From: Psammoneis japonica
Lineage: Eukaryota
Direction of reading: 5' to 3'
Assembly: GCA_008632985.1 (NCBI GenBank)
Contig: QPGO01000313.1
Span: forward strand, 1-61,169
DNA: 61,169 nucleotides
The notes beneath the pieces were generated by a model. It had not been told where the DNA came from. It searched no databases and saw only the letters and a list, made by a program, of their open reading frames with translations. This document shows positions 8,401 to 61,169 of the stretch, in pieces (the first letter of the stretch is position 1; every line of letters starts with the position of its first letter). Both the position numbers and the translations under genes were made by a program.

Positions 8401-8463
8401 CAAAAACGTAAGCCTGGCCGGCCAAAGAAAACACCCGGCGCTTTGATCCGCATGGAAGACTAA
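5443..8463 (+). mobile_element. Mutator-like (MULE) DDE transposase, intact 1006-aa ORF
   Basis: Putative catalytic D (LSADTTH, 6538), D (NSDGDKAI, 7021), CWAH motif (about 7090), E (NTNSDEAHN, 7564); SWIM finger CTC-x8-CPH (about 8270-8310); C-terminal AT-hook-like KPGRPKK. Termini and TSD not resolved. Confidence 0.88.
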
Positions 8464-24061: not shown

Positions 24062-24792
24062 AAATAGCGCTTGTACTATTTAGCTAGCTAACTACCTGGT
24101 GGTATAGAGTTACTCAGTGCTCAACATGCATTTACGTAGACTACAAACTCCCTATTTCCTGTTCGACCTAGACATCGCTGAATTGGTCCGGATTAGGCTT
24201 TCCAAATAGAGTGGACCTTGAATCCAATCTTGAGAAGCGCGTCCGAATCAACAAGGCGGCAGCCATCAAAGACAAAGGCGGGCTTGGACATTACTTGTAG
24301 ATGCGTTCGTAATCGAGAGTTTTGAACTCGTCCCACTCCGTAAAGACGCAAATGGCGTGCGCTTCGCCGCAAGCAGAGTGCGCTGCCGGAGCAGTCGTGA
24401 ACAGAACCTTTGCGACCTTGTCTAGCTAGTAGAGCCCGTAGCTGTGCTACTTCATCTTAGAAATAGAGTTTGTACTTTACTAACTAACTAAAGAGTTACT
24501 TAGTACTCAACATGCATTTACGTACACTACAAACTCCCTATTTCCTATTCGATCTCTAGAGATCGCTGAATTTGTCCGGATCAGGCTTTCCAATCGAGTG
24601 GACCTCGAATCCAATCTTGCGAAGCGCGTCCGAATCAACAAGGTTGCGGCCATCAAAGACAAACGCGGGCTTGGACATTGTCTTGTAGATGCGTTCGTAA
24701 TCAAGAGTTTTGAACTCGTCCCATTCGGTCAAGATGCAAATGGCGTGCGCTCCGTCGCAAGCAGAGTACGCATCCGGAGCAGTCGTGACAGA
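24019..24792. repeat. Tandem duplication of about 390 bp (24019-24405 / 24408-24792) covering the convergent 3' ends of GSS and UGDH
   Basis: CTTTGCGAC.TTGTCTAGC, TCATCTTAGAAATAG, CTCAACATGCATTTACGTA.ACTACAAACTCCCTATTTCCT and GGAGCAGTCGTGA occur in the same order in both copies. Confidence 0.92.
24168..24405 (-). pseudogene. Degenerate copy of the UGDH 3' end
   Basis: Aligns to 24556-24792 with substitutions and indels (TCCAAATAG vs TCCAATCG; CATTACTTG vs CATTGTCTTG). Confidence 0.85.
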
Positions 24793-26182: not shown

Positions 26183-26529
26183 CTTGTTAATACACACAGT
26201 CCAGTTATTATGATGCCTGTGTTGGGATGTCAAGTCCCAGCGACACAACATCATGCGTTCGCGGCGCTGACGGGTGACGGGCCATCACAGTTCGTATCCA
26301 ACGGTCGATTCACGTAGAACCAACGCAAGGTTTGTACCAGTGACGTGACCTGCGATGCTTGCGCAAGACGCACGCAAGTGACGCAGACACTGCGGTACGG
26401 GAAACGCAAGACAAAGTCAGCCAGACACACCACACACCACATTCTATCATACAGTCAGCATGACAAGCGAACATTCAACCCAAAGGCAGACAAGCAATGG
26501 CACAAAATGCCAGTCGTCGATGTTCATAC

Positions 26530-27760
26530 TTCGTGTGAATTGCATGTTGTGCAATGATGATTTTGCATGTGCAATGTGCAATGTTGTTGGCATGTGTGCA
26601 GTGCATTTGCACGTGGCATGTCATTGCACAAAATGACTCACCAACAAAAAATGTGTGGCCAAGCATTGCAGCACCCAGGGTTGCTTGACAAGATGGATGA
26701 CCCACTCTGCTCCATCAGCAGGTCAATGTCGCACCCCATCCTCAACCCTCACACCAAAGAGCACCACACCAGCACCAAACATGAGTTCAACGGAACACAC
26801 GAAACTCAACATGAAGCTGCCCTTGTTGGATTCGCCCTTTCTTGGCGATGCTGCTGCTGCTGGCGCATCATCTGTCTTGTCCCCTTTGCCATCAATCACT
26901 TTGGAGCCCCTGGCTGTTTTCACACTGCATCTTCTTTAGAGCTGATCAACAGCACCCCATCCCCACCCACTCCCCTTGGACCACCAAATCCCCTCCTTCC
27001 AATGCCCCCCGCCGACGCCCCGTGCCGCCTGCCTGCCAGAGGAGGGTGTGCATGTTGAAAGCAGCGAAGTTTTTTTCACGATCGTGTCACAGACCCCATG
27101 ACCCACACTTGTTGAAAAGAAGCTTGTGACAAGCTGTGCAAGTTTAAAGAGATGTGACATTGGCTGGAGTGAGTGAAAAGCAAATGTTTGTCCCTGAAAA
27201 TGAGGTCGACACTTGAGCAAAAGTGGCTGTCATTTGTGTGCAATTTTCCTCAATCATTTTTTGTGTTTGTGCACAAAACCAGTTGATGCAACAAATGTGA
27301 CATTTAAGTGGGAGTTCAGAAAGCTCATCCAGACTTGCACACTGCATGAATTGCTCAGGGGACCACTTGTTTTTAGACTTTGCTCTTGTTCTGGAGCTTT
27401 CACAATGGAAGACATCAAAACTCAGCTTTTGTCAGTCACTTCAACTGGGTGTGTTTTGGTGACTGACGAAAGCCGATTTTTGTCAAGCACTTTCAGCGTT
27501 AAGATTTTTGAAAAGCAAAAACATCTTTGCTGCCATTTGCATGCCTCCGGTGCGCCTGCACACAACTGTCCCCATCTGCCATCCTCTCCACTGCCAAAGC
27601 CACTTCTTGGAAAAACACATCCTCCACCACACGTTTTTTTTGCTTGACCCACCACACTTCGACTCCATCACAATGGGGCCTTCAAAGCCTTGGCTTTGCA
27701 CAACCAAATCGCTTGCTGACCAACTCACCCGCTGCTCCGCCAAACTACAGTCCCAGCTCG
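26530..27760. other. TpA/CpG-depleted hypermutated tract 3 between the divergent UGDH and PCGF genes
   Basis: About five TA in 1.2 kb by eye, all in TTA context (about 26937, 27145, 27305, 27374, 27500); TG/CA rich. Confidence 0.85.
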
Positions 27761-39392: not shown

Positions 39393-42300
39393 ATGATGCG
39401 GAGACCGAAATCATCTTCTTTTCGCGCCACGGAAAAACACAACAACACAGACTTCTGTCGCGATGAGAAAAATTCTCTCACAAAAAAACCCACGAGAGAG
39501 AAAAGTACAATCTCTACTGGTGCTTCGATGATGACCGACGTTGAAGAAGAATCAGCTCCACTAAAAGTGGCTACACAGCAGCAGCTGCATCCTTTCTTTA
39601 TCAACATGGGCATTCAATCCCAGAAGCGCAAAGGCTCCATTAAAACGAGCAAAAGTCAAGCGCAGACACGTAAGAAGCGCACGCAACAGAGCGATTTAAG
39701 TGGGCGCAAGGTGCCAAGAGTAGACGACGGAACAAAGAAATGCAAGAGGTGTGAGAATGGGCCTACATACCATCATGGTCACGATCCCACGTGCAAGTTT
39801 TCGAAACGATACATGCAAATCAATGTCACCGCGGCTACGAAAGATGCAGAGCGACGGGAAAAAGAGCTCCATGAAAAGAACAATACGATCCCAGCCGCCC
39901 CACAGAAAGGAGTTTCTACCATGGAAGACCATTTTGAAATTAAAGAATCAAACAGTCGAGCTCCATTGCCTCCTCCCGGTGATTCAAACTTTTGCAAGCC
40001 CGTGAATCTGGGAGCGTCCAGTTCTACCGTCGCAAGCAACCCGAATCTTTTTGATGCCGCAAGGAATACAAAATTCTCGGTTGAGACGTTGAAAAAGAGA
40101 TTCGAGCACGAGTGAAAAAGTATGAGAACTCGGAGGAGAAGACAAAGTGCCCGGCTGCAGTGAGTGCTCTTATCAGTTATCTGTTGGATTCTGTCAAGCC
40201 CAGATTTGATCAGGGCAGCAACACGTATCCTGTTGCTACAGCAAAAAGCACTAAGCTCAAAGAGATTCTGGAGGTCAAGGATGGTACCTTTCCGCCTGGT
40301 ACAATATCGTTTCAAGTTCCCAAGGATGACTGCACTTCACCGCCTGATTATTACTACCACCAGCTGCAGGGTATGATAATATACATCGTTTGTTGGGAGC
40401 TGAATTGTCCTAACATCTACATTTCCTGTATTGACGGAGAGTGTGACGGGGAGATGATTCATGACCGTATGGACTTTACTCGATACGGTGGGGCGACGCC
40501 AATATATTGCATCAGCGGTAAGACTCATGTGGCAGTGTCAATGTGGTATGAGTGCAACAAATGCAAGACGCGATGCAAGGGCAACGACGGTCGACTGCTA
40601 CACAAGTTACCAAAAAGCCTTCAATCATCGTATCCAACTGAGCCAAAGTATGCCAGCGCAACCAACAAATGGCACCTTACAAGGGAAACCACAAGGCTAT
40701 TTGAATCCTTTCTTGTCACGTACGCAAACGGCGATAAGTTTTCTCACACGCTACACCAGATGCGAGCTGCCTATTTCGAGGATCTCCAGAAAGAGTATTA
40801 TCAACGAGCCAACGATGAATCAGGTGACTGGATATCTTTCTACGAGTGGATTGGCAGCTACAGTCCATCAGGTTCTGCGATTCTTGATCTTTATGATGAA
40901 TCTGGCGCATCGGAATTGACAGCTCTTGATACGTCATCATACTCCAGATGTACAAGATTGATCCAGATGGTGGGAGCATCAATGAGCGTGGCTTCTGACC
41001 ACACTTTTCAAATTCTCAAGAATTATACAAAGAAAGGTGGTGGAGCGGCGGCAGGACTATTTACTATGTGCAACGAAAAGGGACAGGTTGGAGTTGCTTG
41101 TCTGACACCGACGTTGGAAGCAAAAGATTTTGCTCACGCAGCCGAGCAGTTCGCGAGGCGAAAGAACGTGCGTCCAAAAATCCATTACAGCGACACTTGG
41201 CCGAATAAGTCATCGTTATGGAAGGTGTTATTTGGAGGTTACATAGTATGCCGTTTGGGTCTCTTTCACTGGATGCACCGTATTGTACAGACACTTCGAA
41301 AAGACCACGTCGACTATCATCAAGCAGTTCGGGACCTTCGAGCTACAGTTTCATACACCGAGTGGTCGGACCGCCAAGCAGTAATACAAGCCCTCAAGGA
41401 TGGAACTCTCAATGGCAAAAAGCACACGGATGCAGAAATAGATGAGATCATCCATTCTTCCAGGTGGAAGCACTACTCAGAATACATGCGCATTTGGAGG
41501 CATCCGCTGGAAAAGAGAATCAGCTTGCTTGACGATTGGCACGCCCGATATAAGTGTACGGCTTCTGATGGATCGCGACCCGCTGGGGGACGTCTTGATC
41601 CAAACAGTGGTTTGACACTCTTTACAAGTGATACAAAGGATGCCGTGGCAAATGGAAGAGAAACATCCAAGGGATTGGACGTTCCAGTGCCAAAGTCAGA
41701 GCAGTACTGGCCAGTGGCTCCATCGCTCCGTTCAAGAGCGAAGCTGGTGAAGTGGCGGACATTACTCGGGCCGGAGTCAAAGTTGGAAAAGGCTCATGAT
41801 TCGCTGGCTCATTATGGAACTGTGGGATGCGAGATTCATTGATGGATTTGATCACTCTGGAAGGTTTGGTTCTCTACAACGCTACAATTGAAGAAAAGGA
41901 ACGCGTTGAACGAATGAATCCAGAGACTCGAGCAAAGATTCCATACGATTTTCGGGGTGTGGTTGCTCATCGGAACGTGCTCAATCTAATCGAAATCACA
42001 AGCTAGCAACAAAGAAGGGGAAGAAAGCGCCCTATCCAGATGTAAGGGAACTCGAGGCGGACACCGGCGAGCGTTTTCTGTCCAAGTACCTGCGGGAGCA
42101 GAATGCTAGAAATGAAACAATTACTCCACACCCGGAGACGGATCGATGTATGTGCAATATCTGTGGGACAAAGCCAGTGACAAATCCATACAAGCGAACA
42201 ACAAGATCAGTTGTTGGAAACGGCAACGATGGAGAAACTACAGCAGTGGCAAGCGTTCGACCGGCTAGTGGTTTTGTGGAAATTGTGGCGGCTCCTCAGG

Positions 42301-44010: not shown

Positions 44011-44214
44011 ATAATACGAGCATTGAAGAGAGTCAAAAAGGATTTTTGAATACAAATGGACGCTTCTTGAGCAAGGAGGAATTGAAAACAGCGAGGACGG
44101 GTCGTGGCGAATGAAATGCATGGGACACCGGATGCCATTGGATCTCGCAATGATTGCGTTGGAGCAGGGGCCTCGCCTTTGCAAGCACTGGATGGACTCA
44201 TGGCTGACGATGAC
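44011..44214 (+). pseudogene. Fragment of a PPIL4-like cyclophilin gene, inverted copy of 54922-55110
   Basis: Aligns to the reverse complement of 54922-55110 (GCTTCTTGAGCAAGGAGGAATTG, GGGTCGTGGCGA, CCATTGGATCTC, GCCTTTGCAAGCACTGGATGGACTCATGG). Confidence 0.85.
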
Positions 44215-47200
44215 CCACTCTCTCAGTGTGGCAGGAACACAAGGGTCTGTCTCTCCACAGTAATCCCAGCTGCTGTCAGCAGTGACGCATCGCAGCAGGA
44301 AATGGGTGCTCCATCCAGCATGCTGGAATGTCGGAGAGAGCAAACACAGTGCTTTGTGGGCTGACAAGCAGCAGGAGTGCTGGTGTGCTGGGGCAAGAAA
44401 TGTGCCATGGAATTTCTGGAGCCAGAGCAGCACACTGACTTTTGCTGCAGCTTCTGCCTGTCAAGCATCCTCTGCTGTGGCCAGCACTGACAATTCTCTG
44501 CACAACCAACTTCCAGATCACAGCTGCAGCTGTTGAGCCTTGCCATCATGCTGTCACCTCAAGGCCCAGCAGAAAGTTGCACTCTCAAGCTCAGCTGCTG
44601 CTTTGGGTTTTTTGGTGCATGTGTGTGCTGCACTTCAAGTGGTTTGGTTGGGAGCTTGGGTGCCTTTTTGTGGCCTTGTTGCAATTCAAGGTGCCTGCTG
44701 CAGAGCTCTGTCTTTGGCTGCTCTTCTTTGATTTCTGTGTGGACCCAAAGCAACTCAGCAGCCTCTTTGTGTGCACCGTGTTTGCACTCTGTGCTTCCTG
44801 CAGCTTTGTTGCCAACAGCAATTGTGCACCCCAGCCAAGCCCCTCAGCAATCCACAGTCATTGTTCCAACGAACGCTCCTTCATGGATGATGACAACCAT
44901 GCTGCAGCAGCAGTTCATGCTGCAGCCAATCAAAATTCTCTGAGCATCAAAAGCAAATGTGAGATGTGTGAGTGCAGCATTTGGTTTGATGTCCATGGTT
45001 GCAAAAAGCCCACTGTGACATTGCAAGCAGTGTGGTGGTGGTGGTGCTCACCAATCTTTTTTGCCACAACTGAAGCTCACATGATCCAAGCAAAGAGTGT
45101 GCCATGACACACAACAGCAAAAGAAAGAGTGCACCCAAGGTGGGAGTGCAGCCAAGTGGGCTGCTTCTTGTTGTCTTGTTGTCCATTGCACCAAACACAT
45201 CACAATCTTTCCATGCAAAAGAGTGGACAGAAGCAGCCAGTGGCTTTTTCCAGCTGGTGCATTGAGTGTTGTCTTGCCATTTTCCAATGTCCCCACCAAA
45301 CAGTTCCTTGTTTTCAAGATTTGTGGCTCTTACAACCTCTGATGCCTTTTTTCTGCTTTGTCATCTGCAAGAGTTGTTGATGACAGCACAAAAGAGATCA
45401 ATGTTGTCACCCACACAAGCACCGCTGAGCTCTTGCTGAAAAGATTTGAAAATGGCAAACTGTCTGCTGTGGCTGCAAGCTCACCAAACAGAAACCTGGT
45501 GCTGTGATTTTTGCCAAATTTTGTCACACAGTGTTGCATCTGGTGTTCTTTTCAATGGAGCTGCAAGATCCAGCAGTGTCTCAAAAATGGAGCATGTCTC
45601 AGGCCACTCCTTGTGCATGTTTTGTGCCTCTCAAGGCATGGCAATGTGCACATCATTGAGGAATGACTCTTAGAGATTTGGAGGTGTTTGTTGTGCATGT
45701 GGCCCCAGGTGTCAACTCCTCTGCAGTCTGCTGGGCTGGTTGGCCTGACATCCCAGCAGTTGATCACAGGCACTTTGACTCCACACAGGACTCAATTGCA
45801 GACTGTTTGCTTGGTCACATTTCTGATGTTCCAGAAGATGCCTGCCCAAACCCACAATTCCCTGATGACCCTTGAGTTGTTGGCACAACAATGACAATCT
45901 TCGAGAGGCTGCTGAGACTGTCACATCCACCAGCATTGAGAGCTTTTGGAGCAAGCACTGACACTCTTAGAGATTTCCTTGATTTCAGAGCAGGGTGCAG
46001 ATGCCCAATGACAGAAAGCCTGTCAATCTGCTTGACCCACTCAAAGGGGTTGCAGTTGAGGCATCAGCTTGGTGTTTTCTGAATTTTTGATTTTGCATGT
46101 CTTCTTTGCTTCACCCTCTGGACAATCATCAGCCCACCCTTGTTCTGGCACACACATGTGCTCAACTGGAGGCAGGTGCAGAGAGTCTCAGTCAGCAGCT
46201 TCTTCATGTTAGAACAAAACTCAGGAAAACTGCACAACGTGGTCTCACAGATCCAAGATGCAGGAAACATGTGTTCCAGAAAACTGCAGGCATTGAGGAT
46301 TGGAATGCTGCAACACCACAACTTCCCACAGTTCAGATGCAGTCACAACAGGTGCTGTGACAAATTTTTTCAAGACTCAGTCATTGGCAGCTCATGGCTC
46401 AAGACAGAGCAGTGTAAAAAAGTGCAGCAAGTCTCCCAAACTGGGTGCACCAAAGGAAGATGTGTGCCACCAAAGTCAATTTTTTGTTGAGAAGGTGGTC
46501 CTTTTGCTGATGCTGGGCACGGATGCCCCCTCCTCACATTGCATGGTGACTCCTGACCTCCACTCTTTCAACACACTGGTGTGTCTCCTCCTCCCAACTT
46601 TGGGTCTTTTCTCAATTCAGCAGGGCTGCACATTTGTGCAGTGTGAAACATGATGAGGCTGCTGCCAACCAATGGAGCCATGTCTTGTCTGGGCATGCCA
46701 ACGCACTCTCCCCCCCAACAACTGCACTGTGTGGGACATGACACTTGCTGCCAAGCAAGAAATTCAAACAGATGTCACACACATCTTGGAAATTTGTCTA
46801 GATGTTGCTCAATGTGTTGCTCTTTGCACCAGCTTGCCAGTTTGCTGTCAAAGGTCTGCTTTGTTGTGTGGCAGGGCTGCCTTTTTTCACCAGCTCCAGC
46901 ACTCCATCCACAATGAGCACAGATGCCAGAGACATGGGCACAATGGGCACAGCCACCAGAGACATGGAGGTGTGCAACACTGTCTTCTTGCAACTTGGTG
47001 TCAGAATGTTTTGTCAGGGTCTCAAACTGCAGACCTGCTGGGCTCACAGCCCTCAGACTTCTGACACAAGTGCCACAGAAGACAGGCCGCTCATCCCACA
47101 CTGCTGCCAGGTTTGCATCTGTTGATCTGTGACTCCAGGAGGCAAAACTGTGGCACATCCTCAACAGGATTGTTTGCTTGGACAACTTGAGAACAAGTTG

Positions 47201-50200
47201 TTCCTGACAACCTGCATGGAGCTTTTGCTGTGTGGACTTGTCAAAGATGTTGTCTGGCTTCACTTCTGAACCCATTGGAGAGGCAACTTTGGCAGGCAAC
47301 TCATTTGATGCTGACTTCTCTGAGAGTGCGGCATGCACAAATCTGACTTTGCATTGGTGCACCAGCTCAAGCTCTCACATGTGGTCCTGCTCTCTTGCTG
47401 ATGCAGAAAACAGACTTTGCCACTCACATCTGCAGCAAATGTCACCCAGGTTGTGCATTTGGCAACATCTGTTGGGGCCCTTCTGGATGCACAAAATTGT
47501 GTGGTTGTGAACCTTTTTGGTGCCATGTGCCACATGCCTGCAGATCATGAAGCTTGTTTCATCAACTTTAACACCAGCACTCTCTTTGAACATTTTTGTC
47601 ATTTTCCCTGGGGTGGCATTGCAAGACCTGCAGGCCAAGTCTTCATGACAGCCTGATGCTTTTCGGGAGGCTGTTGGCCTGCATCAGAGGGCCATGGCAT
47701 GTGCCACAGTGTGGACTCAACAACAGCTTGATTTGGAAGAACCCACCATCTGTGATCTTGCCAAGCAATTGAGCCAGAGCTCATTGCAGTTTTCCTTGCC
47801 AATGGTGGCTCTGAAAAATGCTGACCCCACCAACAGCCAGAGTGGTCCACACAAGGCTGGCAAGTCTGCAGCACATGGTCTGCACTCTCTCATGTGGGCT
47901 GTTCATGATTCAAAACCAAGTGGGCTTTGTTTCCCAGGTTCAAGTGGTGTGTGCAACAGAAACTCATGGGCCAATGTGTGCTGCTGCCATCAACTCAGGA
48001 AAGTTGTCACAGCACTGCATGGTCTTGAAAGAAGCCCACCATGTTGACAGCCAACCCAGAGCTGGAAGGTGCAAAAACATCCAAAAAGAAATCTCACATC
48101 TTGTGCAATCTTTGCCATGTAAAAAGACAAAACAAACTCTGGCTCAGGGCTTGCCAAGATCACATCAGCAGCAGCTTTCAGGTGCCAGCAGACACTGTGG
48201 TCAACCCCAAGGAGTGGCTGCAGGGACCAAGTGACAACAACAAAACTCAAACCAATGTTTCAAGTGCTGGTCTCACATCTCAAGACATTGACCCACACTC
48301 ACAGTGCACCAGCTGGTGCAGCTGGATTGTTCACAGGACACTCTGTCTCTGCTTCATTTCAAGTCAAATGGAAAATTAACTGCATGCTCTGTGTGCACAC
48401 AACCCAGCTGACCATGTTGGAAGAATGAAAAAGCCCAAAAACCACACCCAGCAGGAGATGCTAAAAACTAAATGTCAAAAAAGCAACACATCTCTGTCCT
48501 CTTGCTGCAGCAGGGGATGTGAGAAGTGTGAGCACAGACAGCCAGTTTGAAAGCAACATGGAAATCTGCGTGGAAACAGCAGGGAACAATTGCTCTTCAT
48601 GCAATGCTTCAAATGTCAGTGGGAGTTGGTTGTTGCCAACAAACTGTGATGAACATGACTGCAGCCACTTTGTGTTGCCAAAGGGGTGCAAGCAATGCAC
48701 CTGCAAAGAATGGCAGAGAAATGAAGCTGGGGGTGAAGAAACTGATGACAACAACAATCATCAATCTGTGGTGGCACCAAAGCATTTTGCAGAGTTCAAT
48801 GCAAGGAATGTGGCAGTGCCAATCAGAGCAGGAGTGTAAAAAGGCACACACTGCCATGATGGAGCCATGCCTCCCAAGCACCAGGAAAGCAGCATGTCTC
48901 CTTTGATGCCACTGGCACAACTGCTGCCTGCAGCTCCACATCACCAATGGAGAACAGCACAGAGCTGACCCCACAAAGGACATTTCTTTGGGTGCTTGTG
49001 AGTTGTGGGTGACTGAAGATGCTTCAGAAGAAGCTGCAGAAGCTTTGCAGTGCCACAGTCAATGCCTCCTCTGTGTTTCTGCACTCAAGCTGCAAAAAGA
49101 AGGAAGCTCAGGCTCAAGGGATTAACTGTGTGTGCCAGAAGATCACAGGAGAAGATCAACTCTTTTGACTGTGGAGCCACTCACTTTGAACAATGAATGT
49201 AAAAATGATGCTTTCAAACAGAGCATTTCCTTGGTTGCAACAGTGAACATGGTGGTGAATGCACAGAACACATCAAAAATCACCTCTGCTGGTCTCCAAC
49301 ATGCAAACTCACATGCAAGCCACCCTTGGTTCTTTGCCTCAGCAATGATGCACCTGTGCAAATCATTTGTGAAGCTGATTTTTTCCATTGGCCCCTTCAT
49401 GGAGACACAATCAGAGAAACCAACAAGAGACTGTTTGAACACAAAAATGAAAAAAATTCAATGGGGGGACACAATCCTCTGAACCAAACAATGAATCTGC
49501 TTGCCCCGTTTTTCCAAAGAGGGGGCACTGTCATGGCAGATTTGATGCTGAAGCAACTGCTTTGCTGGCCCAACACTTGCACCAGCACACACCACACTGC
49601 CGCTGCAGTCTCAAATCTCCTGACCCCCAAAGACTTGTGCTCAAGATGTTGATCTGGCCAGAAGCCATGCTGACTTCCATCAAATCTGGCTCACATCTTG
49701 GCCACCCCCAGGATGTCAACATCTCTTGGCTTTGTGCAACCCCTGGGGTTGTTGTTGGAGACCAGCCACTTGGCTTCTTCCATCAAGCTGTGCTGGGCTG
49801 CATTGAAGTGAGGACATCACTGCAGTTGTCAGAGGGACACTGGCAACAATGTGGTCTTTGAATGGATGAGAAACAACATCCATTGACTGAGGGAGCAGCC
49901 ACATGCATCAGACAGACTCTCAAATCATCTCTGCAGCAGCAAGTGTCAGGCATTGGCACAACACACAAAGAGCACAGTTGCTCACACAATCCTGCTGTCT
50001 GAGAGGGTGATGCTTTCCTCCACGCAAACACTCCTCTGGCATTTCTTGAAAATCTCATGTTGGAAATCAGTGCATCTTCAGAGACAACTCTCATTGACAG
50101 GAGGAATGTGCCAGCTACAACATTGGCTGTGAGCAGGAGCTTGGGAGGTGGAGACATGAGGGTGACAAAATTCTTGGCCACTCAAGTGCCACATCATGAA

Positions 50201-52250
50201 GCATGTGCTTTGCATGATGCCCCTTGGCCTCACAGAAGAGCACAAAGCCCACTTCAGCAAAACACCCAAGACCAAGGCAGCAGAAACTCCCTTTTGTGGC
50301 ATGGAGCTGTGTCTCTGCAGTTCATTGCTCAACATCTTTGATCCTCTAAAGTGTGCAGAGCACATTCTGAAACCCCAGGTTGCTTGGTCTGTCAACAAAA
50401 GTTCAACAGCGGCTCATGTGCTGTTGACAACACACCCATTCAGATCAACATCTTTTGTGCATTTCCCCAACCCTTGTCTTGTCTTGTCTTGACCATGCCT
50501 TTTCTTTGTTGAAGGACAGTTGGTTGTTGTGGTGCAATGTTTTGCACATGATGGGCACCACAAACTTGAGCGACCAAGTGCTGCTCATGTCATGTGATGA
50601 AGTGGGCTTTCACCGATCATGGCAAGCCTCACCCAAAACCACTGCATGACAAAGTGGACACAGAAATTCATTCTGCTTGCCAGGCAATGCACTGCAACAG
50701 TCAACGCCAGCTGTCAGCATGACAATGCACTCTTTGCAAAATGCAAGGGTTGGTGCCAGGTTCCCAAAACTTGCAGCACAAGGAGAGCTCAAAGACAAGA
50801 CACCACCCATGGAGAAGCACCACAGGCATGTGTTGTTGTGCTTGGCATTTGCCTTTCCTGCTGCAAGTGCTCCCCAACACACTTTTGAACAACAAGAGCT
50901 GTCTTGAAAATCCAGTGGGAAAAACAGTGGTGGGAACACTGCCAAGCATGATCTGCCACACTGACCACATTGCCAGGTGGCAGCAGATGCTCAGGTTTTA
51001 CAATTTCTTTGGCACTGCTGAGGCTTGGGTCAACCTCAACATTTGATTGTGACAGCAGCAGCCTCTGGACACAACTGCAGCTTGTGTGATGGGAGTCATT
51101 TTCTTGTGTGATTTGAGCACATGTCTTTGCATCATTCCAAACCTTGTCAGCTCAGCTCACTGCATTGGCTCCTGAGCCAAATCAAGCATCATTTGGCTTG
51201 AATTGCCCAGGTGTTTTTTCCTTGCAGAAGGACAACAACTTGTGCTCCATGGGCCCGGTGCTTGCCTCAGGTCTCTGTTTGTGCAACCCAAAGGTGTCAA
51301 CACTGTCAGACACTGCTGCATGAGTGAACAGCTTGATGTGCATGGATCCCCACCAGCTTTGACTAGCAGTGCCTGATGCAAAATTGATTTTTTGATCAAC
51401 AGTGGAAGAAGCTGTCAACAAATGTGTTGAAGCAATGGAGAACAACCTGCGAAATGTTTGTGAGTGGCCTCAAGACAAGAGAGTCATCCATGGGCAGCTG
51501 GCTTGCCCCTGCGTCTGGCTGAAATGTGGGTGAAACCTTTTCAGCCCATTCTCCTCATCTTTGCAGAGAACAGTTTCTGAGTGTGTGTGTGCCCCAAACA
51601 GCTTTGAAACATTCCCGATGATCAGCACCAAAGTGGAGCTGCAAACAGAGCTGGGCACAGCTCCCTCTTCTTTGGACTGCTTTGTGGCAGTTGATCCATC
51701 CTTGACCCCAGAAGACAAGTGGAACACCCCCCCACTCTGGCTGCACATGATGACATTCCAGTGCCTCATTTGACTCTTGCAGATTTTGAGCAAAGACTGC
51801 ACAAAACCTCCCACAGCTTGGGAGTTGCCACTGTTTGTTCTTGACCACCATTTGATTTTGTGCACTTTGCAGTGGTTGGCAGCAACAGACCCATCTTTGG
51901 TGAACTGCTGATCTCTCCTCTCCTGTGTGTGGCAGAGGCTCATGTGCTGCAGAGCACTGTCTCATTGAAAGCCCCTTTTTTGCTTGACTGATGTGGAGCT
52001 CCACTGCATTGCACCTGAAAGGCAGGCAACTTGCCATGTTGTGTGCTGACGGCATTCTCCAACTGGGTCCACACTTCTTGATTGATTGAGAGCCACAAAC
52101 AGAATGAGACAAAAAGCCTGGCTGAGGCACGTTGCTTGGCTGGCACATTCCCTCCCAGCTGTGAGGTGTGGTCAACTGAGTCTGCCATGCTTTGTGTCAG
52201 TGGCTTTCCAACATGATAAAGTCCAAGGCCAAGTTGGAGCTCCTGTGCAC
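44060..52250. other. TpA/CpG-depleted hypermutated tract 4 (about 8 kb, degenerate; ancestral content not identified)
   Basis: About 20 TA by eye in 44230-52240, none in 44263-45330; CpG rare; dense overlapping Tyr-free ORFs. Confidence 0.92.
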
Positions 52251-53168
52251 ATAGTGCGTCCTCAACTTTTCCAATTTTCCCTTTCGTACCTGTTGTTTCT
52301 TTTGCTGGAAGATCGTCACGCTCGAATATCACCGCGTTTCTGACTGAGTCGGAACAATGAAAGCAATCGCCTTGAACAATCCTAAGGTTTATTGATCTCA
52401 GCGAGCATGAGAGCGGAACTCTTGCCAAACGATACTCACTAATACCATTCCAGCACCATCTCTTGACTTCTACGCTTGAAAGTGTAGATAGCAAACCATT
52501 TTCTAGGATGAACCCTGATGACTGAAACCGCACAGTCAAAGTTGTGAGGTCATTCAGCACTGGTGATACATGTAGAAGTGTGTATCTCTCTTTTTCTTCA
52601 GCGTCATTCGATTCTGGTAGCCAGCCCACAACATCTCCCTTTGTTCTTCCTTGCTGGAGTGCTATTCCTGACGCCTGCACTCTTTAAGTACGTGTCTTCG
52701 CCTATCGAGTCAGCGATAGTACAAGGAACCGTCACTTACATCCGCTTGAAGGCTGCCTCTGAGGACACCCATCGGCATGATTCACTCTTTGGGGTGGAGG
52801 TAGACTATTTTATACTGGAGCCATGTCTTGTGACTGCTCTAATCTGAGATTTGGATTGAAGTGCAACATCGTCATATTTCTCTACTAAATATGGATAATA
52901 AGGTAGTGAGTAGTCCAAAGAATCAAGACCAAGCAGAGAAGCCAGGGGCGTCAATGCGGACAGACAATTGAGGCATGAAGTATGAACTCACGCGAAAGGC
53001 TCGAAACGGATACTTGTTGATAATGCACGAAAGCGCCTTGGCCTTGGCAAAATGAAGCAGTCCAACTGGACTGCGTCCCTCTCTTTGATACGAGCGATGA
53101 ACCAGAAACGTCCAGCACGTTTAACGTGACAGGATTGAAAGCATTTCGCTTGCAGCAGGAAATTACAA

Positions 53169-54220
53169 TGTTGGCAGTCGAGTCGGCCTGACTGAAACAA
53201 AAAACGGGCGCCTGCTGAAAGTCCGTGTAGCTGGGAGCCTTGGATGATGTTATCGTCAAGGAGGTAATGGGACCTGTTGTCGTTGAAAGGTTTCCATGTA
53301 GCTCGACAAAGTGAGACGAGAGTGACAATTCGGTAGTGAGCGTACAGTGAGTTGCAAGAAGCCCAAGCGCCTTAGCAGGAGCAGTTAGGAAACTCGTATT
53401 TCTCATTCTTTTGTCAACGTATGGTACCAGATGACCGATTCCTTCCGTGTGGATGCAGTGGAATGTTCTCAGCCTTGTTGAATGCGAGCAGGTTTGGAGG
53501 ATGCCGGAGAAGCAAGTTGGAGCGACTTCTCTGCGTAGAGGAATAGGCAGTTTGAAGCAAAAGGAAGTATAGATACCGACCGTATGTCCAAAGATAGCGT
53601 GAGAGAGAATGCTTAGCGAAGAGCGGCCCTTGATGCCTGATCTGAATCGCCTCTGGCCCTCTGGCAGCGCCATGCGCCATGGGTATCGTGACACGCGCCA
53701 CTGAGGTTTCATTCTTGTATGTTGAGAGGTGTTGGCAGTCGAGTCGGCCTGCTATCATAAAACATGCACGTACTGAAAGTCCATGTAGCTGGGAGCCTTC
53801 GATGATGTTATTGGCGAGGAGTTAGGGGACTTGTCGTCGTTGAAAGGTTTTCCAAGTAGCTCGACAAGGTGAGACGAGAATGACGATTCGGTAGTGAGCG
53901 TAAAGTGAGTTGCAAGAAACCCAAGCGCCGCAGCAGGAGCACTTATGAAACTCGTATTTCTCATTCTTTTGTCAACGTATGGTACCAAATGACTGATTCC
54001 TTCAGTGTGGATGCAGTAGAATGTTCTCAGCGTACCTTGTTGAATGCGAGCTGGTTAAGAGGATAAGTTGCAGCGACTTCTCTGCGTAGAGGAATGGACA
54101 GTTTGAAGCGAAAGGAAGCAAAGACTTAGCGAAAAGCGGCTGTTGGTGCCTCATCTGAATCGCCTCTGACCCTCTGGCAGCGCCATGGGTATTGTGGCAT
54201 GCGCCAGTGCTGTTTATTGT
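53169..54220. repeat. Diverged tandem duplication, period about 561 bp (53169-53715 / 53730-54220), of a decayed minus-strand coding fragment
   Basis: TGTTGGCAGTCGAGTCGGCCTG at 53169 and 53730; both copies encode VPYVDKRMRNTSF..AP..ALG.LATH.TLTTE on the minus strand. Confidence 0.9.
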
Positions 54221-54253
54221 TGCATCATGCGTATGTTGTGTTTTCATGATGCA

Positions 54254-55314
54254 TTAGAGACGCGCCGGTTTCATGTCTCGAATAATTTCAGCCGTGACCT
54301 CAGGATCAAAGCGTGAAAAGATCAGTTCCGAGTCCTCATCGTCCGTCACTGGATTCAATTTGCAAACAAACAAAATATTCTTGGGAGCCTTGATAACTAC
54401 CTACTCTACGGTATAAAAACGAAACACAGTGCAGCGGAGAGAAAAAGAAGCAGAACCACAGAACCACACAAGTGAATCATACTCACCGGCAGATGGCAAG
54501 TCCCCCAACACTTCCAAAACAACAGCACGCGATATGTCTTCTCGTTAATGATTCTCTTCTTCTCGTTGCCTGGCTTTTTCGTGAGTTTCGTCTTCCTACT
54601 TCTCTCCGTCCTCTTCATTTGCGTGAATGCGGTGCTCCACGACTTCTTCTGGAGGACGATAATGTATTCAGGAGGCGCCGTCACTGTATCATCTTCCAAA
54701 AGAACTCCACGACGTTTAAGCAAGTCTTTCCATTCCGGGAGGATCATCAAATGCATAATGAATCACAACGATGCACAATACGTTGTATATCCGCAAAAGG
54801 TCGTCCGTCGGCATCGCAATATACCGCTTGAATCTTGTCTAGCACACCGTCTTCATCCTCCGCCACGGTTCCCAACGACAAGAATGTTGTTGCTGTTGTT
54901 CGGCATTGTTGGGCGACGCCACCATGAGTCCATCCAGTGCTTGCAAAGGCCCCTGTTCCAACGTAACCATAACCTGAGATCCAATGGTATCAGGTATCCC
55001 ATTCATTTCAGTCGCCACGACCCTTCCTCGCTGTTGCAATTCCTCCTTGCTCAAGAAGCATCCTTTTGTTTTCAAAAAACGATTTTGACTCTCTTCGATA
55101 CTCGTATTGTTTGTTGTAGCGTCGATCAGTCCATATCATAGATACCGCCGCCGCCGGCAAAATGTTGTAAATCAGCGTGTTGGTGTATTACTTCTAGGTA
55201 AGATTAGTGGCGAGCGTTGGCTAATTTCAAAACATTACGAGCGAGCGCTGGATTCTCCTCGACATCCAATTCAATGACGACATCGCCAATTGAAGTTTCC
55301 AACAACAACGACAT
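54254..55314 (-). pseudogene. PPIL4: PPIL4/CYP59-like cyclophilin-RRM pseudogene, truncated inside the RRM, intron 54486-54406 retained
   Basis: Read across frameshifts: [107 protein letters not shown]; many stops and indels. Confidence 0.88.
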
Positions 55315-55439: not shown

Positions 55440-58330
55440 CGGCCCGTCTCGTTGGTGCTCCGCTGCGCCTCTGGGTGGATTCCTCTAAGTTGAGATGGAC
55501 TGGAATGGCTTTGCCAGCGGATGCGCAAGCCTCATTCCCAAACCCAAGCTGGAACGGCAGGGCCAGAGGGCAGGAGAGGTGGGAGCGTTGAACTGTCCAC
55601 TTGCGGCTCTTGCTCTTGCTGGTTGCTCTTCGGAAGAATGAGAAGAGGGGGTGATGAAGAGCAAGTGGCCGTTGCTCCAGTCTTGCAAACACGTGTTCAA
55701 ATTTTTAAACGACTGTGGGACAAGTGACCCAGTGGCCAGGAATGGGTCATTTCATCTCGTTGAACCTCCCAAGGTTGGCAGCTTGTGCTGCCCATCTCAT
55801 CAGTTCTCCTGCGCCTCTGCAGAGTGAGTGAGCGCAGGTGGGCTCTGAGTTGATGGACTGGAATGGCTTTGCTGGCGGATGCGCAAGCCTTGTTCCCAAA
55901 CCCAAGCTGGAACAGCAGGGCCTTCCAGTGCCACCACAGTGCAATGCACTTGAAGGCATGCACCACTGGGTGGGTGGGTGAGGCTGGGGGGCTGGGGTGA
56001 TCCAGCCCTGTGGATGTGGGACATTCATGGGGACGTCGGCGTTGGGATGGAGGACGAAGTCGCCTCCGGCCAGCATGTTGCAAGCAAAACTGTGCAAAAT
56101 TGGTTTGGCTTGCAGATGCAAGCAGTGCAACATTTTGTTGGATTGCCAATGGCCCAAGAGCCGAATGAGGTCTGTGTCGACCTTGGTGCAGAGGCAGGAG
56201 TGCCATGGCACCCGCTGCGTGAAGGCACTGAGCAGCGACATCTCGGGTGTTAAAGCCGGGATTTGCCAGACCACATGTGATGATGGCTGTGCGCAGAGTG
56301 CTTGTGATGTCAGCTGGTGACACCCAGTGCCGTGCATCATTGTGAAAATGGATGGCAAGGGGGTGTCAGGGAGCACGTTGTGAGATCAAAGTTGTCGGAC
56401 GTGCCGGACGAGTGCTTTGGCAGGGCACAAATTGGGGTGTCCCGAGAGGCTGAGTCCCAAAACTTCTCCACAGATGCCATTGTGCAGTGAAAGCAAGAGT
56501 GGCAAAGGTGGCAGTGTAAAGCTGAGCATTGGGGTCTTGGAGGGTGTCTAGATGGGCTCCTCTCCAGATGCCAGGCAGACGTTGGCAAGGCGGAACATGG
56601 TGTTGAAGGGGGTCACGGTGCATTCACTGGGATGCAGGAGGCAAAAGAAGGCAATGGCTGTCACATCAGCATCCACTTGAGTGCCTGCTGGGTCAGTGCT
56701 GTGGGGGTGGCAGCATGCATGATCCAGGTGAGGACAGCGATGGGGACCAGTTTGATGCGGTCTGGTGGCGGATCCTCTTTCTTGCAGTGATGGACTTGCC
56801 TGGCAAGTTGGAAATCCATGCCACCTCAGGGTGTGTGCCGCAGATCCGCAGACCCCATGGCAACAAACGTTTGGCCAACCAACCACACGGCATCCTCAGT
56901 GGTTCGTCCTCTAGTGGGATTGCCGTGCAGGGCAAGGATGCCAGCTTGGTGATGGTGGAGGAAGACTTGCAGGAAGACAATGGGGTCATTGATGTCTTGG
57001 AGTGATGGGTCAATGGCCAAAGAGGTGCAAAACTTGCACCATTTGTCCCAACGGGCATTGGTGATGGAGGCTCTGGAATCAGCAACACCATGGGCGACGC
57101 CGTGTTGAGCAGCATTGAGGTCACGAATGAACTCAGCCCAGATGGTGGCATCCAGAGGTGCCAGGAGAGTTTCTGCGGGTAAAAACGATTAAAGTGACAA
57201 AGGAAATCTCAGTTGGCAAGGGACTGAAGGTGTGAGGCATCATCATCAGCAGAGTTGAGGTGTCCAGGCCAACAATCATGCTGTCCAAGGTGGTGATGGC
57301 AACATTGGTGGAAGGCTTGATGTTGAAGAAGCTTGGAAGCTGGTTTGATGGTGGTGGAGGAGCCTTTGCATTGCCAGCGCATGGTGCCTGAGTTGTCAGT
57401 GCGCGAGAGGCCAGTGCACTCACAAATGTCAAAACAGTCCAGTGGGTGGTGGTGCAGGATTGGATGACGCTCCCAGCGAGTTCTAAATCAGTGTTGGCAA
57501 TGGGGCCACGTGGGTTGGTGCAGGTGGCAAGCTGGGAGGTCACACATTTGGGGAAAGGCATGCGCCAGACAACCGGTCCTGCATCGCACTGAGTGTGCTG
57601 TCAGTTGTTGCTAAAGCACAGGGTGGTGGCTCGCTGGACAGTGGCAGCAGTTGGGAGGAGCATGTCTCCAGCGCTGTGGCCGGCAACATCATGGCAGCCA
57701 GTGATGGTGGGTTGCAACAGAACCAGCTCCTGAGTGCGAATGGGTTGGGACTCCAGGGTTGGTTTGAGGTCACGAAAATTGTTTGGAGTGGAGTGGGAAT
57801 TGGATGTGATGCAGACTCTGGAGTCCAGAGCAGTGTGTTGGAGGTTCTCTTGAACCTCTGAGTGGAGACCGCGTGAACCCGGGATGGCAAGGCCGAGCAA
57901 GCACAGTTCACCTGAGAGCTTGTGGCAGTCTGTGGCGGTGGTGCATTTGCAGGTGCAAGGAAAATGCTGGTGCAGTGTGGTGCAAAGCCGTTCATGCCCA
58001 CAGGGCATGAGGTGGATGGTCATGGAGTTGGCATTGTTGATCCACCCCAGGACTTCTTTCTGCGTGGACCAAGTGGCATCACCCTGGCAAAGCTTCTTGA
58101 CAGAAACTGGCTCCTTGTGGGTGATGGGGTCTTGGGAGTCCTTGAGGGGCCAAAAGATGTCATCCAGTGTGTGTGGCATGATGTGACAGATGTGACGGCA
58201 TGCCTGTCAAGAGCCTTGGGAGGCACCAATGAAGTTGTTGACACAGATCTTGACACATCAGAGGCATTGAACAATGTGAGCCATCAAATTAAATGGTGGG
58301 CATGTGTGGCTCTGACAAGGGCACCGGATC
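55440..58330 (-). mobile_element. Degenerate DIRS/Ngaro-type tyrosine-recombinase retrotransposon (RT C-part, RNase H, YR, 3' repeats)
   Basis: RT CVNNFIG (58245-58225, from YVDDFIG), KEPVSVKKL..GDATWSTQKEVLGW; RNase H NTDLELAG; YR DPIVFLQVF..RTTEDAV..VGQTF, AFFCLLHPSECT, LHAAGAMALL, LIRLLGHWQSNKMLHCLHLQA. Confidence 0.9.
55494..55922. repeat. 71-bp direct repeat pair (55494-55564 / 55852-55922) downstream of the YR gene, probable split terminal repeats
   Basis: GATGGACTGGAATGGCTTTGC..GCGGATGCGCAAGCCT..TTCCCAAACCCAAGCTGGAAC.GCAGGGCC twice; weaker similarity extends about 50 bp upstream. Confidence 0.88.
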
Positions 58331-61169
58331 ATGTGCAAACAACTGGTTGCCATGACAAAGCTGGAGTGTGGCATTTTTCCAACAAACAACAAATTGCTCA
58401 CCAGCAGGCTGTGGCTCAGCTTGCCTGGACTGTTGTGTTGGTTGCATGTCATGATTGTGTGCTTTGATGCTTGCACAACAGCAGAAGGTTGAGCAGGACT
58501 TTCCCACACAAATTGAGTGCTTTGCTGTCATCAAGAGATCTGCTTTTGTCCAACAGGATTGAAAAGTGCTGCATCATGGCTGCTTGTCACATTGTGTCTC
58601 CCAGCCTCTGGCATGTGACAAACTCTCAGGAGGACAACACTGGACAGTGGCAAGCATTTTTTAATGATTGCTTCTTCATGATGCTTTTGTGCACCAGGCT
58701 GGTCTTGGCACCAGTGCAAGTTTTTAAAAAAACACACAGAAACCAGCAGGATGGACAGGTCAGATTGACATGCACATTTAGAGTGCTTGGAGTGAGCAGA
58801 TTGACATGCACATTGTTTGGGGTGCTTGGAGTGAGCTGTGGGGCAAAGATGATGGACAAGGCAAACCATGGCAACAGCACTTGTGTGCACCAGAATCAGG
58901 AACCAAGCAGCACCAGACAGCTGAAGCTGGGCCAGCAACCATTTGAGGCTGGTGATGGCATCATTTTGCACAAGACAGGGATCACCTGCATGATGATTTG
59001 GGTGGAAACCTTGCTCACTGAGTGTAAAGAACAAGGGAAGCTGGCTTGCAATGATGACAACAATTTGCCAGTCATTTGGGTTGGTGCCTCAAAGTGACAC
59101 CAGGACAGACCAGCCATTGTTGTCACTTGTTTTGCCATGCTGTTCTGTGTGCCATGAGTGTGGGCTGGTCTGCTGCTGCTGGTGTGTTGTTGCTGGCCAG
59201 AGGTGCAGAGTGGCACCAGAACAATTGATTTTGGTCCCATCATCTTCAGCTGTGCTTCTCCAATTGTGGCAGCTTTCTCAACATGGTTGCAGGCATGTTG
59301 TTTTGGGACTCTCGTGGCAAGCAATCAAGTGGCCAACACACTTTGAAAATGTGGAAACTTCTCAGCCCTTTTCTGCTGCCAGTTGAAACGGCACAGTTTC
59401 GCCAAAGTTTGTTGGTCCTCTGAGTCAGAAGCGGAGTGTGCTCTTTGGCGTGCAGAATTTTGGTCCAACAGACGATCAGATGATGATCACACTGATCTTT
59501 GTCCAGCTGCATGTGTGACATTTGATGAGTTCAATTTTGCACGCCGATGGTCAACTGTCATTTCTCAATGACTTTGGAAGTTGTTCATGATGCTGTGATG
59601 ACCACCGTCATGCATTGCAAGCTCTGTTGAGATGTCTCAGTCTGAGTCTTTTAAATTCCCCAAACCCACCCTGTGTTGTCTGTGGCACTGTTGGGTCCCT
59701 GGGGGATTGTTCATGTTTAGGAATGAAAATTTCCCAGGCCAAACCATTGGGTTTCAACATCAGACCATTTGTGTTTGGGATTGGAGCCCACAACCTGTCA
59801 TGAGGACTTGGCTCGATGAGTCATCACTCCAAGTTTGGCACATGTTGTGATGCTGCATTTTTTTGTGTTTTGTGGCACTGCTCAAGAAGGAAAGTTGGCC
59901 ATGATCTTGAGCAAATCTCAAACAGCAAGCAGCTGCTGCTTTTCAGCACAGGCAACTGGCATGTGAGGCATGTCTGAGTCCACAACACACCCACATCATG
60001 AGCTGCACACAACAAAGAGTGCTCCTCTAATCAAAGAACAGCACCTTGCAATAAAACTGCAACAGAGCATGCTGTGACTGAAGAGTGATTGTTGTTTTTG
60101 TGATCCCTTGGGCAACAGAAGGACCTTTTGTTTGAACATCAGGGTGTGACACAGTTTTCAGAGCACAGACAGACATGTTGAAGTGAAAGCAATGCAAATG
60201 GCTGTCAACAATGTGGTGAATCCACATTTGCAACTCACTCAAGATGGGTCTCATGCTCACTCTTTTTAGCTTCTGCCTGCACCAGGACAACATGGCAATC
60301 AGAGTGGAGCAGTGTTTGTGATCCACATGAAAAGTCTGGGGATTGGCAAGACTGAAAAGCAGAACAGTCAGCAAGCTGTGAAATTCGAACACAGAAGCCA
60401 AACTGAGTGGGAAGTCATTGAGAATCTAAAGGTGTGATTTGTGTTGATGGATTGTGGCAAATGAGCTGGCTGGACAAAGTGAGCAAAGAGACAGTCTCTG
60501 GAGAACCTTGCTGTGAGGAAGCTGTGAGGGTCTGCTGAAAGAGGGTGCAACAAAGTTGTGTCAAACAGGGAGAAACATCAACATGGGTGAGGATGCAACT
60601 GAGTGCAGAAGCACAAAAGATTTGAAGCAGAGTGGGTGCATGATGCCATTGCTGAGTCTGGCTGGTCGACAGGCAATGGATGCACAGAGACTGCTGCAAG
60701 GAGAACAATTGAGCATGTTGGAAGAGAGTTCTGGCCAGAGATGCAGGTGCTGGTGTCTTTGAGATGGGAGAACAAACCAGAGCAGCTGGGGTGGTGACCA
60801 TCTGGCAAAACTGCATTTGGGAGAAGAAGGACAAGGCAATGTGGAGAAAGCCACACAATTGCCACATGAAACAGGGTGCAATCTGCAAGATGCAGAAGAA
60901 GGTGAATTCATTTGATGCAATTGTGGGGCAGTGCATGACAAAGGCAGTCCATCACAAGGTTGAAGGAGTGTGACAGAGTTTGTGAGGGTTGCAAAGGAGT
61001 GGGACACAGTGGCCTTGTTGAAAATTCCCTGATCTTTTGTTCAATGCAAACAAGGGAATCTGCTTGCATGTTCAGGCTGCCAAAGCTTGGAAGCAGTTGA
61101 TGCGCGTTCATCAGGACAAAGAAGCAAGGAGTGCTTCAAGATTGTTGTGGTCACTTCGTGAGCATTGTT

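Follow-up and report, generated by a model that had tools for sequence, protein, structure and literature searches.

The window analysed here, meaning the whole stretch of 61,169 nucleotides of contig QPGO01000313.1 (assembly GCA_008632985.1, Psammoneis japonica), is eukaryotic DNA, dense in genes and with few introns. It holds five tracts in which the dinucleotide steps TA and CG are nearly gone while TG and CA are nearly doubled. We are concerned here with the few TA steps that survive in these tracts, and with the hypermutation that their flanking bases appear to record. The long open reading frames (ORFs) of the window encode CCR4-NOT subunit 1 (CNOT1), a eukaryotic glutathione synthase, UDP-glucose dehydrogenase and others. 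The best named relatives of the glutathione synthase are all from diatoms (Ditylum, Seminavis, Cylindrotheca, Nitzschia and Fistulifera; 61-64% identity), and its top relative reaches 71%. Genes located between the tracts, CNOT1 and the glutathione synthase among them, have a normal TA level. The tracts lie as follows (Y, pyrimidine; R, purine):

16990-18010: tract 1, TA- and CG-poor; 2 residual TA (CTAA, TTAA)
20962-22300: tract 2, TA- and CG-poor; 1 residual TA (CTAG)
26451-27550: tract 3, TA- and CG-poor; 6 residual TA (TTAA 3, TTAG 2, ATAC 1)
44052-52100: tract 4, TA- and CG-poor; 19 residual TA (TAA/TTA 16, YTAR 11)
55480-61169: tract 5, TA-poor, reaching the window end; 21 residual TA (TAA/TTA 19, YTAR 17)

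Pooled over 17.2 kb, the tracts have an observed/expected (O/E) ratio of 0.05 for TA compared to 0.60 outside, an approximately 12-fold depletion, and of 0.18 for CG compared to 0.99. TG and CA reach 1.84 each (1.12 outside) and together make up about 23% of the dinucleotide steps. Base composition shifts barely, and AA and TT are unchanged, with tract-to-background O/E ratios of 1.07 and 1.03, respectively. TA and CG are the only dinucleotides lost; AA, CA and GA are not.

The two losses differ in extent. TA O/E stays between 0.00 and 0.13 throughout tracts 4 and 5, uniform where CG loss is uneven: CG is only partly lost in 55501-58000 (O/E 0.3-0.58) and falls to 0.2 or less elsewhere in these two tracts. 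The residual TAs of tract 5 all lie within 55486-60428, with none from there to the window end at 61169. For CpG, the 187 residual sites of all tracts display a mild flank bias, TCGA being the most depleted (0.42x) and CCGG the most kept (1.75x). Because of this uneven extent and much weaker flank bias, the CpG loss is read as a process separate from the TpA loss. Uneven CpG loss beside uniform TpA loss suggests two separate processes or different ages.

An earlier note on this DNA, made from the letters of the sequence, had claimed that the surviving TAs are almost all in TAA or TTA context. For tract 5 the recount gave the same figure, 19 of 21, the exceptions being two CTAG at 56549 and 56912 (tetramers TTAA 7, CTAA 5, GTAA 3, TTAG 3, ATAA 1, CTAG 2). 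In tract 4 the bias was recovered with a slightly different count, 16 of 19 instead of 17 of about 20. The five TTA sites described in tract 3 are present, but they are accompanied by a sixth TA, an ATAC at 26527 near the tract edge. All five tracts pooled, TAA or TTA accounts for 42 of the 49 residual TAs (86%).

This share was compared with four expectations. The 41 kb of non-tract sequence in the window contain 1640 TAs, of which 589 (35.9%) are TAA or TTA (pooled p 8.8e-13; tract 5 alone p 3.2e-7, tract 4 alone p 2.2e-5). The 15,423 TAs of 78 intact DIRS-like loci, described below, give 37.9% (pooled p 6.9e-12). The flanks of TG and CA steps inside the tracts, which model new TAs arising from TG or CA, give 43-48% (tract 5 p 1.2e-5). 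Modelling the tract sequence as a first-order Markov chain predicts a share of 0.48-0.56 (tract 5 p 4.7e-5, pooled p 3.6e-7). The 49 sites are independent, as judged by the absence of any pair with at least 32 of 52 flank positions matching, and repeat searches found almost no internal repeats in the tracts. Counting NTAN tetramers against background and Markov expectation, as the earlier note had proposed, therefore shows residual contexts that depart from every expectation (p 9e-13 to 4e-7). The TAA/TTA bias is confirmed as real and far beyond chance.

The contexts that survive are narrower than TAA or TTA. Grouped by strand-symmetric tetranucleotide, with enrichment taken relative to the window background, the survivors are distributed as follows:

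TTAA: 14 survivors, 7.3x
CTAA/TTAG: 17 survivors, 4.4x
CTAG: 5 survivors, 2.1x
GTAA/TTAC: 10 survivors, 1.8x
ATAA/TTAT: 1 survivor, 0.16x
CTAC/GTAG: 1 survivor, 0.13x
ATAC/GTAT: 1 survivor, 0.12x
ATAT, ATAG/CTAT and GTAC: 0 survivors, 0

In particular ATAA/TTAT, itself a TAA/TTA context, has a single survivor whereas about 90 ancestral sites were expected. By comparison, YTAR makes up 36 of the 49 survivors (73%) against 16.6% of the background (p 2e-18), and its excess is significant in tracts 3, 4 and 5 taken singly. The proposal that a TA beside an A-tract or T-tract is protected can thus be kept only in part: TAAA or TTTA is found on at least one side of 32 of the 49 survivors (9.9% expected), but ATAA/TTAT is lost and CTAG is spared. 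A better rule treats each strand separately: in T-A-N, the A is hit rapidly if followed by T or C, slowly if followed by G and almost never if followed by A.

Viewed in this way, each TA consists of two half-sites, one per strand, and the 49 survivors provide 98. The base following TA in these half-sites is A in 56, G in 28, C in 12 and T in 2, while the background half-sites have A 653, G 728, C 994 and T 905. The second base downstream (+2) is A in 64% of survivor half-sites compared to 25% in the background (p 5e-17), and no significant bias was observed at positions +3 to +5 after the target A. Where one side of a survivor is TAA, the base after TA on the partner side is A in 14, G in 17, C in 10 and T in only 1 (background 64, 129, 182 and 214, respectively). 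To these data we fitted a maximum-likelihood survival model that counts a TA step as lost once either strand is hit. The estimated products of rate and time were 4.7 for TAT, 3.3 for TAC, 1.5 for TAG and 0.56 for TAA, multiplied by 0.33 if the +2 base is A. Likelihood-ratio tests supported both the +1 effect (p 2e-22) and the +2 effect (p 9e-8).

Mutated steps carry information on the side that was hit. Provided that each strand is hit as its own 3′ flank dictates, the proportion of N-TG-M to N-CA-M derived from an ancestral N-TA-M should equal the ratio of its two half-site rates, and the pyrimidine-purine total per flank class is conserved. We therefore measured the excess of NTGN versus NCAN over the ancestral expectation, the CG-derived part being removed and the ancestral TA, TG, CA and CG of each flank being taken from unmutated sequence, for about 680 inferred mutated sites. 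With the window background as ancestry, hits by 3′ neighbour were -5 for A (bootstrap -49 to 40), 144 for G, 265 for C and 269 for T. With the 78 intact retroelements as ancestry, they were 15, 42, 318 and 313, respectively. This order was robust to CpG decay favouring TCG 1.7-fold or 3-fold, which gave 32 and 77 TAA hits of about 673. At dinucleotide resolution the hit share was lowest at AA and GA and highest at TN, CC and CT, and within each +1 class it was lowest with A at +2. At the flank A_A the CA gain exceeded the TG gain (62 versus 28), which indicates loss of ATAA by way of its other strand. The context bias of the survivors is thus matched by a hit-side bias at mutated sites, and the direction of change would be from TA to TG or CA. 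Since the two biases agree, the claim that a sequence-specific mutagen with a flanking-base preference, instead of general drift, acted here is backed from both sides.

Individual changes can be followed in an inverted pair of copies, one at the edge of tract 4 and the other outside the tracts:

44013-44203, minus strand: copy at the tract 4 edge, whose unmutated partner lies at 54922-55108
54922-55108, plus strand: unmutated partner of the tract 4 edge copy, 85% identical, inverted

Four TAs of the outside copy read CA or TG in the edge copy, and a fifth change is complex (CATAAC to CATTGC). One of the four is G-TA-A to G-CA-A, in which the TAC side was hit and the TAA side spared; the three remaining clean changes also occurred at TAY. 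The pair (approximately 190 bp) brackets tract 4 together with TA-normal DNA at 52100-54900, its left copy being partly TA-erased and its right copy not, and could delimit a large composite element. A single N is present at 43759, just left of tract 4. Two tandem duplications outside the tracts, 53169-54225 and 24019-24792 (79% and 84.5% identical, about 400-550 bp), retain their TAs and show ordinary divergence. Local duplication of 400-550 bp is thus insufficient for TA erasure.

We further compared the window with reads, in the form of Logan contigs of one public run, perhaps the assembly's own sample. At a depth of about 45-60, its contigs agree with the tract letter for letter over several hundred bases; identical contigs span 56995-57245 and 58252-58613 and cover the residual TAs at 57180, 57190 and 58290. 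The sole contig over 57484, 99% identical, carries C-CA-A for the C-TA-A of the window, so that the TAG side was hit and the TAA side spared, and it has CA at 57516-57517 where the window has TG. Over 58779, a contig reads A where the window has T. These three differences may be allelic or may stem from near-identical copies mutated independently. Many other contigs are 90-95% alike and, among the 40 of 219 differences listed, differ mainly by transitions and adjacent TG/CA swaps. Such swaps are the pattern expected of copies independently mutated from TA or CG. Two further public runs gave almost no coverage of the stretch, and no RNA run with the stretch was listed.

Evidence on the origin of the tracts comes from tract 5, in which one decayed frame aligns with proteins:

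57604-58206, minus strand: decayed DIRS-like frame, reverse transcriptase to RNase H region, aligned with three metagenome proteins

E values of the alignments range from 3e-29 to 1.5e-19, 92% of the query is covered at 36-40% identity, and the longest of the three relatives carries the YVDD reverse-transcriptase motif. Where the relatives have arginine, the tract 5 frame has Cys, Trp, Gln or His, which matches the prediction for CG to TG/CA change. From this comparison, tract 5 (56085-58260) appears to hold a decayed DIRS-like reverse transcriptase, a label derived from motifs and not from a database name. A second minus-strand frame, 55700-56365, looks recombinase-like by eye only; it had no protein match among 1.84 billion representatives and no Pfam family. 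In a Pfam scan of 56 ORFs of tracts 4 and 5, none scored above a family cut-off and one hit was sub-threshold. In TA-normal DNA of the window, the ORFs 5443-8463 (plus strand, 1006 aa), 40112-41842 (plus strand, 576 aa) and 12845-14083 (minus strand, 412 aa) also had no Pfam family.

A metagenome scan for relatives of the tract 5 retroelement returned 78 loci, all intact, with whole-locus TA O/E of 0.25-0.87, showing that the retroelement ancestor was not TA-poor. No erased copy was found among these 78 loci; six 400-bp windows had a TA O/E below 0.15 but kept their CG. They provide no external replication of the flank rule and were used as a control for ancestral composition. Intact DIRS-like relatives of this kind are common in metagenome contigs, marine ones included; several share 74-99% protein identity with one another, and all have a C-over-G skew on the sense strand. 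A strand bias of the mutator, considered from the excess of CA over TG on the tract 5 sense strand (1.35-1.7), was rejected: the skew is shared by intact relatives (median 1.20) and must then be ancestral. Codon-level ancestral inference was dropped, as the relatives are 36-40% identical with few conserved Tyr, Ile and Leu positions.

Taken together, these results suggest that the tracts are probably transposon-derived diatom DNA which has undergone a strand-wise, flank-reading hypermutation of TpA by transitions in addition to CpG decay. Several observations weigh against this interpretation. The number of TAG hits shifts from 144 to 42 with the choice of ancestry. In block 55480-58000 the hits are C 36, G 54 and T 10 with window-background ancestry and C 45, G 36 and T 15 with retroelement ancestry, hence with few TAT-side hits; this deviation we can only attribute to a different, GC-richer ancestor. 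Hexamer-level hit estimates are negative for AA (-43) and GA (-23). The additive model predicts 5.0 GTAA/TTAC survivors where 10 are seen, and 4.8 CTAC/GTAG where 1 is seen, a misfit compatible with an extra effect of A-runs on the whole TA step. Negative estimates, block deviation and misfit all indicate that composition-based ancestry is imperfect, the ancestral states being drawn from composition instead of alignments, for 49 survivors in one window. Some survivors may also be later G-to-A or C-to-T arrivals that persisted only in cold contexts, which would leave the same fingerprint through another history.

Among the survivors, TGTAAA (half-site pair AA+CA) is found at 7 of the 49 residual TAs, including 46415, 48120, 48837, 49200, 56517 and 59025. 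Since the strand model under-predicts GTAA, these sites may have an extra reason to persist.

A-tracts and T-tracts could also act through the shape of the duplex, by stiffening or narrowing the helix and so shielding the whole TA step from a mutagen that reads no bases. The frequency of TAAA/TTTA among survivors, the influence of A at +2 in every +1 class and the excess of GTAA(A) survivors over the additive strand model (10 versus 5.0) would all be expected from it. However, ATAA/TTAT offers the same one-sided A-run and was almost wiped out (1 of about 90 expected), via the other strand, while CTAG is enriched 2.1x with no A-run at all. Moreover the footprint ends at +2, where a true A-tract effect should increase with run length. 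We consider shielding by shape unlikely. Much less probable still is that the hypermutator had no context preference and that the residual TAs are later ordinary mutations, either from TG or CA or by run-extending dislocation (TGAAA to TAAAA). New TAs must arise in DNA where TG and CA make up so many of the steps, and many residual TAs do adjoin A- or T-runs. Nevertheless, TG/CA flanks predict 43-48% TAA/TTA and 21-25% YTAR instead of the 86% and 73% seen (tract 5 p 1.2e-5 and 6.4e-8, respectively). Run extension affects a single side, but a strong bias is seen at the opposite flank as well; the hit-side test, which relies on mutated and not residual sites, gives the same order.

Selection could retain TA-containing signals, such as the stop codons TAA and TAG, poly(A)-like TGTAAA or other motifs, in uniformly mutated DNA; consistently, all 21 TAs of tract 5 are TAA or TAG on the plus strand and TGTAAA recurs. 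But the tracts have no recognisable intact genes (0 of 56 ORFs of tracts 4 and 5 above the Pfam cut-off) and the DIRS-like frame is decayed. The bias is strand-symmetric, and selection on survivors does not explain which side was hit at lost sites, so that this explanation is highly improbable. We give as little credit to an assembly or base-calling artefact, in which modified heterochromatin bases would be misread and TA and CG would appear as TG or CA save in some contexts. The stretch is found in only one public run, perhaps the assembly's own sample, which leaves some room for such an error. Against it, the contigs match the tract exactly at the depth given above, paralogous contigs differ by adjacent TG/CA swaps as independent mutation would give, and the retroelement arginine codons read Cys, Trp, Gln or His in frame. 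The same type of mutation has in addition been recorded de novo in lines of Bigelowiella natans, according to the preprint discussed below.

In the flank-reading hypermutation that we favour, CpG decay would be accompanied by a conversion of TA to TG or CA, due to an activity that handles each strand separately. It would read the two positions 3′ of the target A; viewed from the opposite strand, these are the two bases preceding the target T. Hits would be fast at T-A-T and T-A-C, slow at T-A-G and very rare at T-A-A, with A at +2 slowing every class about threefold. As a hit on either strand would suffice to lose the step, those remaining would be cold on both strands, that is Y-T-A-R, above all TTAA and TAAA/TTTA, which would account for the TAA or TTA pattern described earlier. 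A TAA half-site would itself hardly be hit, and the step would still be lost when the other strand reads TAT or TAC. Protection that follows single strands in this way favours an activity reading the sequence 3′ of the target A over shape-based shielding of the whole duplex. We infer a single enzyme behind the footprint, whose two-base, strand-wise form agrees with the trace expected from a base-flipping enzyme that reads a single strand. The most likely candidate is a TadA/ADAT-like adenine deaminase acting on DNA, although we put its chances somewhat below even; this family is the natural one to consider since it intrinsically demands U or T before the target A. A thymine-directed chemistry at R-T-A would leave the same sequence as adenine deamination.

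The closest known case is that of Bigelowiella natans, where integrated DNA of giant viruses and virophages is hypermutated at TpA (Mettrop et al., bioRxiv 10.64898/2026.01.13.699255). In mutation-accumulation lines of this species, 231 de novo TpA to TpG/CpA mutations were seen in real time, and an ADAT2-like deaminase was proposed (bioRxiv 10.64898/2026.01.13.699255). Common to both systems are A-to-G and T-to-C transitions confined to TpA, giving TpG or CpA, their regional occurrence, on foreign or mobile DNA in B. natans and probably on mobile DNA in the window, and the long-term depletion of TpA with gain of CpA and TpG, which the preprint reports to include reverse-transcriptase and DDE genes. 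In the window this type of change is seen as TA loss with TG and CA gain, four clean copy-pair changes and contig swaps, for all of which we infer the direction. Confinement to mobile DNA in the window would fit the DIRS-like remnant of tract 5 (E 3e-29), the tract from which the evidence on origin comes, and the TA-normal genes between the tracts. The hosts differ, a rhizarian in one case and a diatom in the other, and so does the degree: the depletion reported for B. natans is mild (Rho TpA of 0.45 in the viral region), in contrast to an O/E of about 0.05 in the present tracts, where CpG is lost too. The main text of the preprint has no flanking-base analysis, judged by the absence of terms such as context, trinucleotide, flanking or logo, though its supplementary tables of mutated sites could hold flank data. 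Compared to that system, the diatom host, the near-complete erasure and the defined flank footprint are new. Full-text literature searches found no description of TpA hypermutation in diatoms among the papers listed.

Repeat-induced point mutation (RIP), of Neurospora and other ascomycetes, converts C to T mainly at CpA and enriches TpA. It resembles the present case as a regional transition hypermutation of mobile elements, with a dinucleotide preference and with decayed elements beside intact genes. Unlike RIP, TpA is here erased (about 12-fold depleted) and A:T pairs become G:C. As to the duplication that triggers RIP, two tandem duplicates outside the tracts have kept their TAs, while many paralogous contigs of tract sequence, 90-95% alike, exist. 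The CpG methylation-driven decay of transposons has its counterpart here in CG at 0.18 of expectation in the tracts and in the products TG and CA. However, that process leaves TpA untouched, unlike the loss observed, and the CpG flank bias is weak (from 0.42x for TCGA to 1.75x for CCGG).

The earlier note had also suggested a comparison with the spectra of TadA and polymerase eta; neither matches, wild-type TadA sharing TA and the hot C at +1. The TadA/ADAT2-ADAT3 family includes the adenine deaminases of tRNA A34. In fungal mRNA editing by Tad2-Tad3-Ame1, TA is reported as 22-233 times likelier to be edited than other NA, with a motif TTAGGA (PMC13431901). Reported sites of the evolved TadA-8e have a UA logo, and wild-type TadA needs UACG (PMC12296453). 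The requirement of this family for T (U) 5′ of the target A is also found here, only TA being lost, and the hot TAC fits UAC. On the other hand, fungal Tad2-Tad3 favours G at +1 whereas TAG is cold here, and TAT is at least as hot as TAC, unlike in UACG. The downstream order T > C > G > A at +1 with a cold A at +2 is neither UACG nor TTAGGA. The substrate differs too, chromosomal DNA over whole tracts instead of RNA loops. DNA polymerase eta generates the WA hotspots of somatic hypermutation, with A-to-G change after T and TA hot on both strands (PMC7884765). As a source of the tracts it was rejected: WA mutagenesis predicts loss of AA, and the AA and TT ratios are 1.07 and 1.03.

There is, in our estimate, not quite an even chance that a DNA-editing enzyme with chromatin targeting, acting either as an adenine deaminase or by thymine modification, rewrites T-A-Y on either strand across the transposon domains of diatoms. 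If so, the footprint (hot TAT and TAC, cold TAG, immune TAA and a protective A at +2) could identify the enzyme. It translates into a prediction for enzymology, namely a candidate deaminase or oxidase active on TAT and TAC oligonucleotides with no activity on TAAA. Residual YTAR combined with TG/CA excess would also be a better detector of affected DNA, and work on base editing would take an interest in a natural enzyme that makes A-to-G changes in DNA, specifically at TpA and in a narrow context. The footprint could further reveal if one and the same machinery operates in Bigelowiella, a distant lineage; the flanks of the catalogued de novo mutations of B. natans, once counted, would test for a common activity. 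If this holds true, A:T-directed hypermutation would be a widespread eukaryotic genome defence, the mirror image of RIP.

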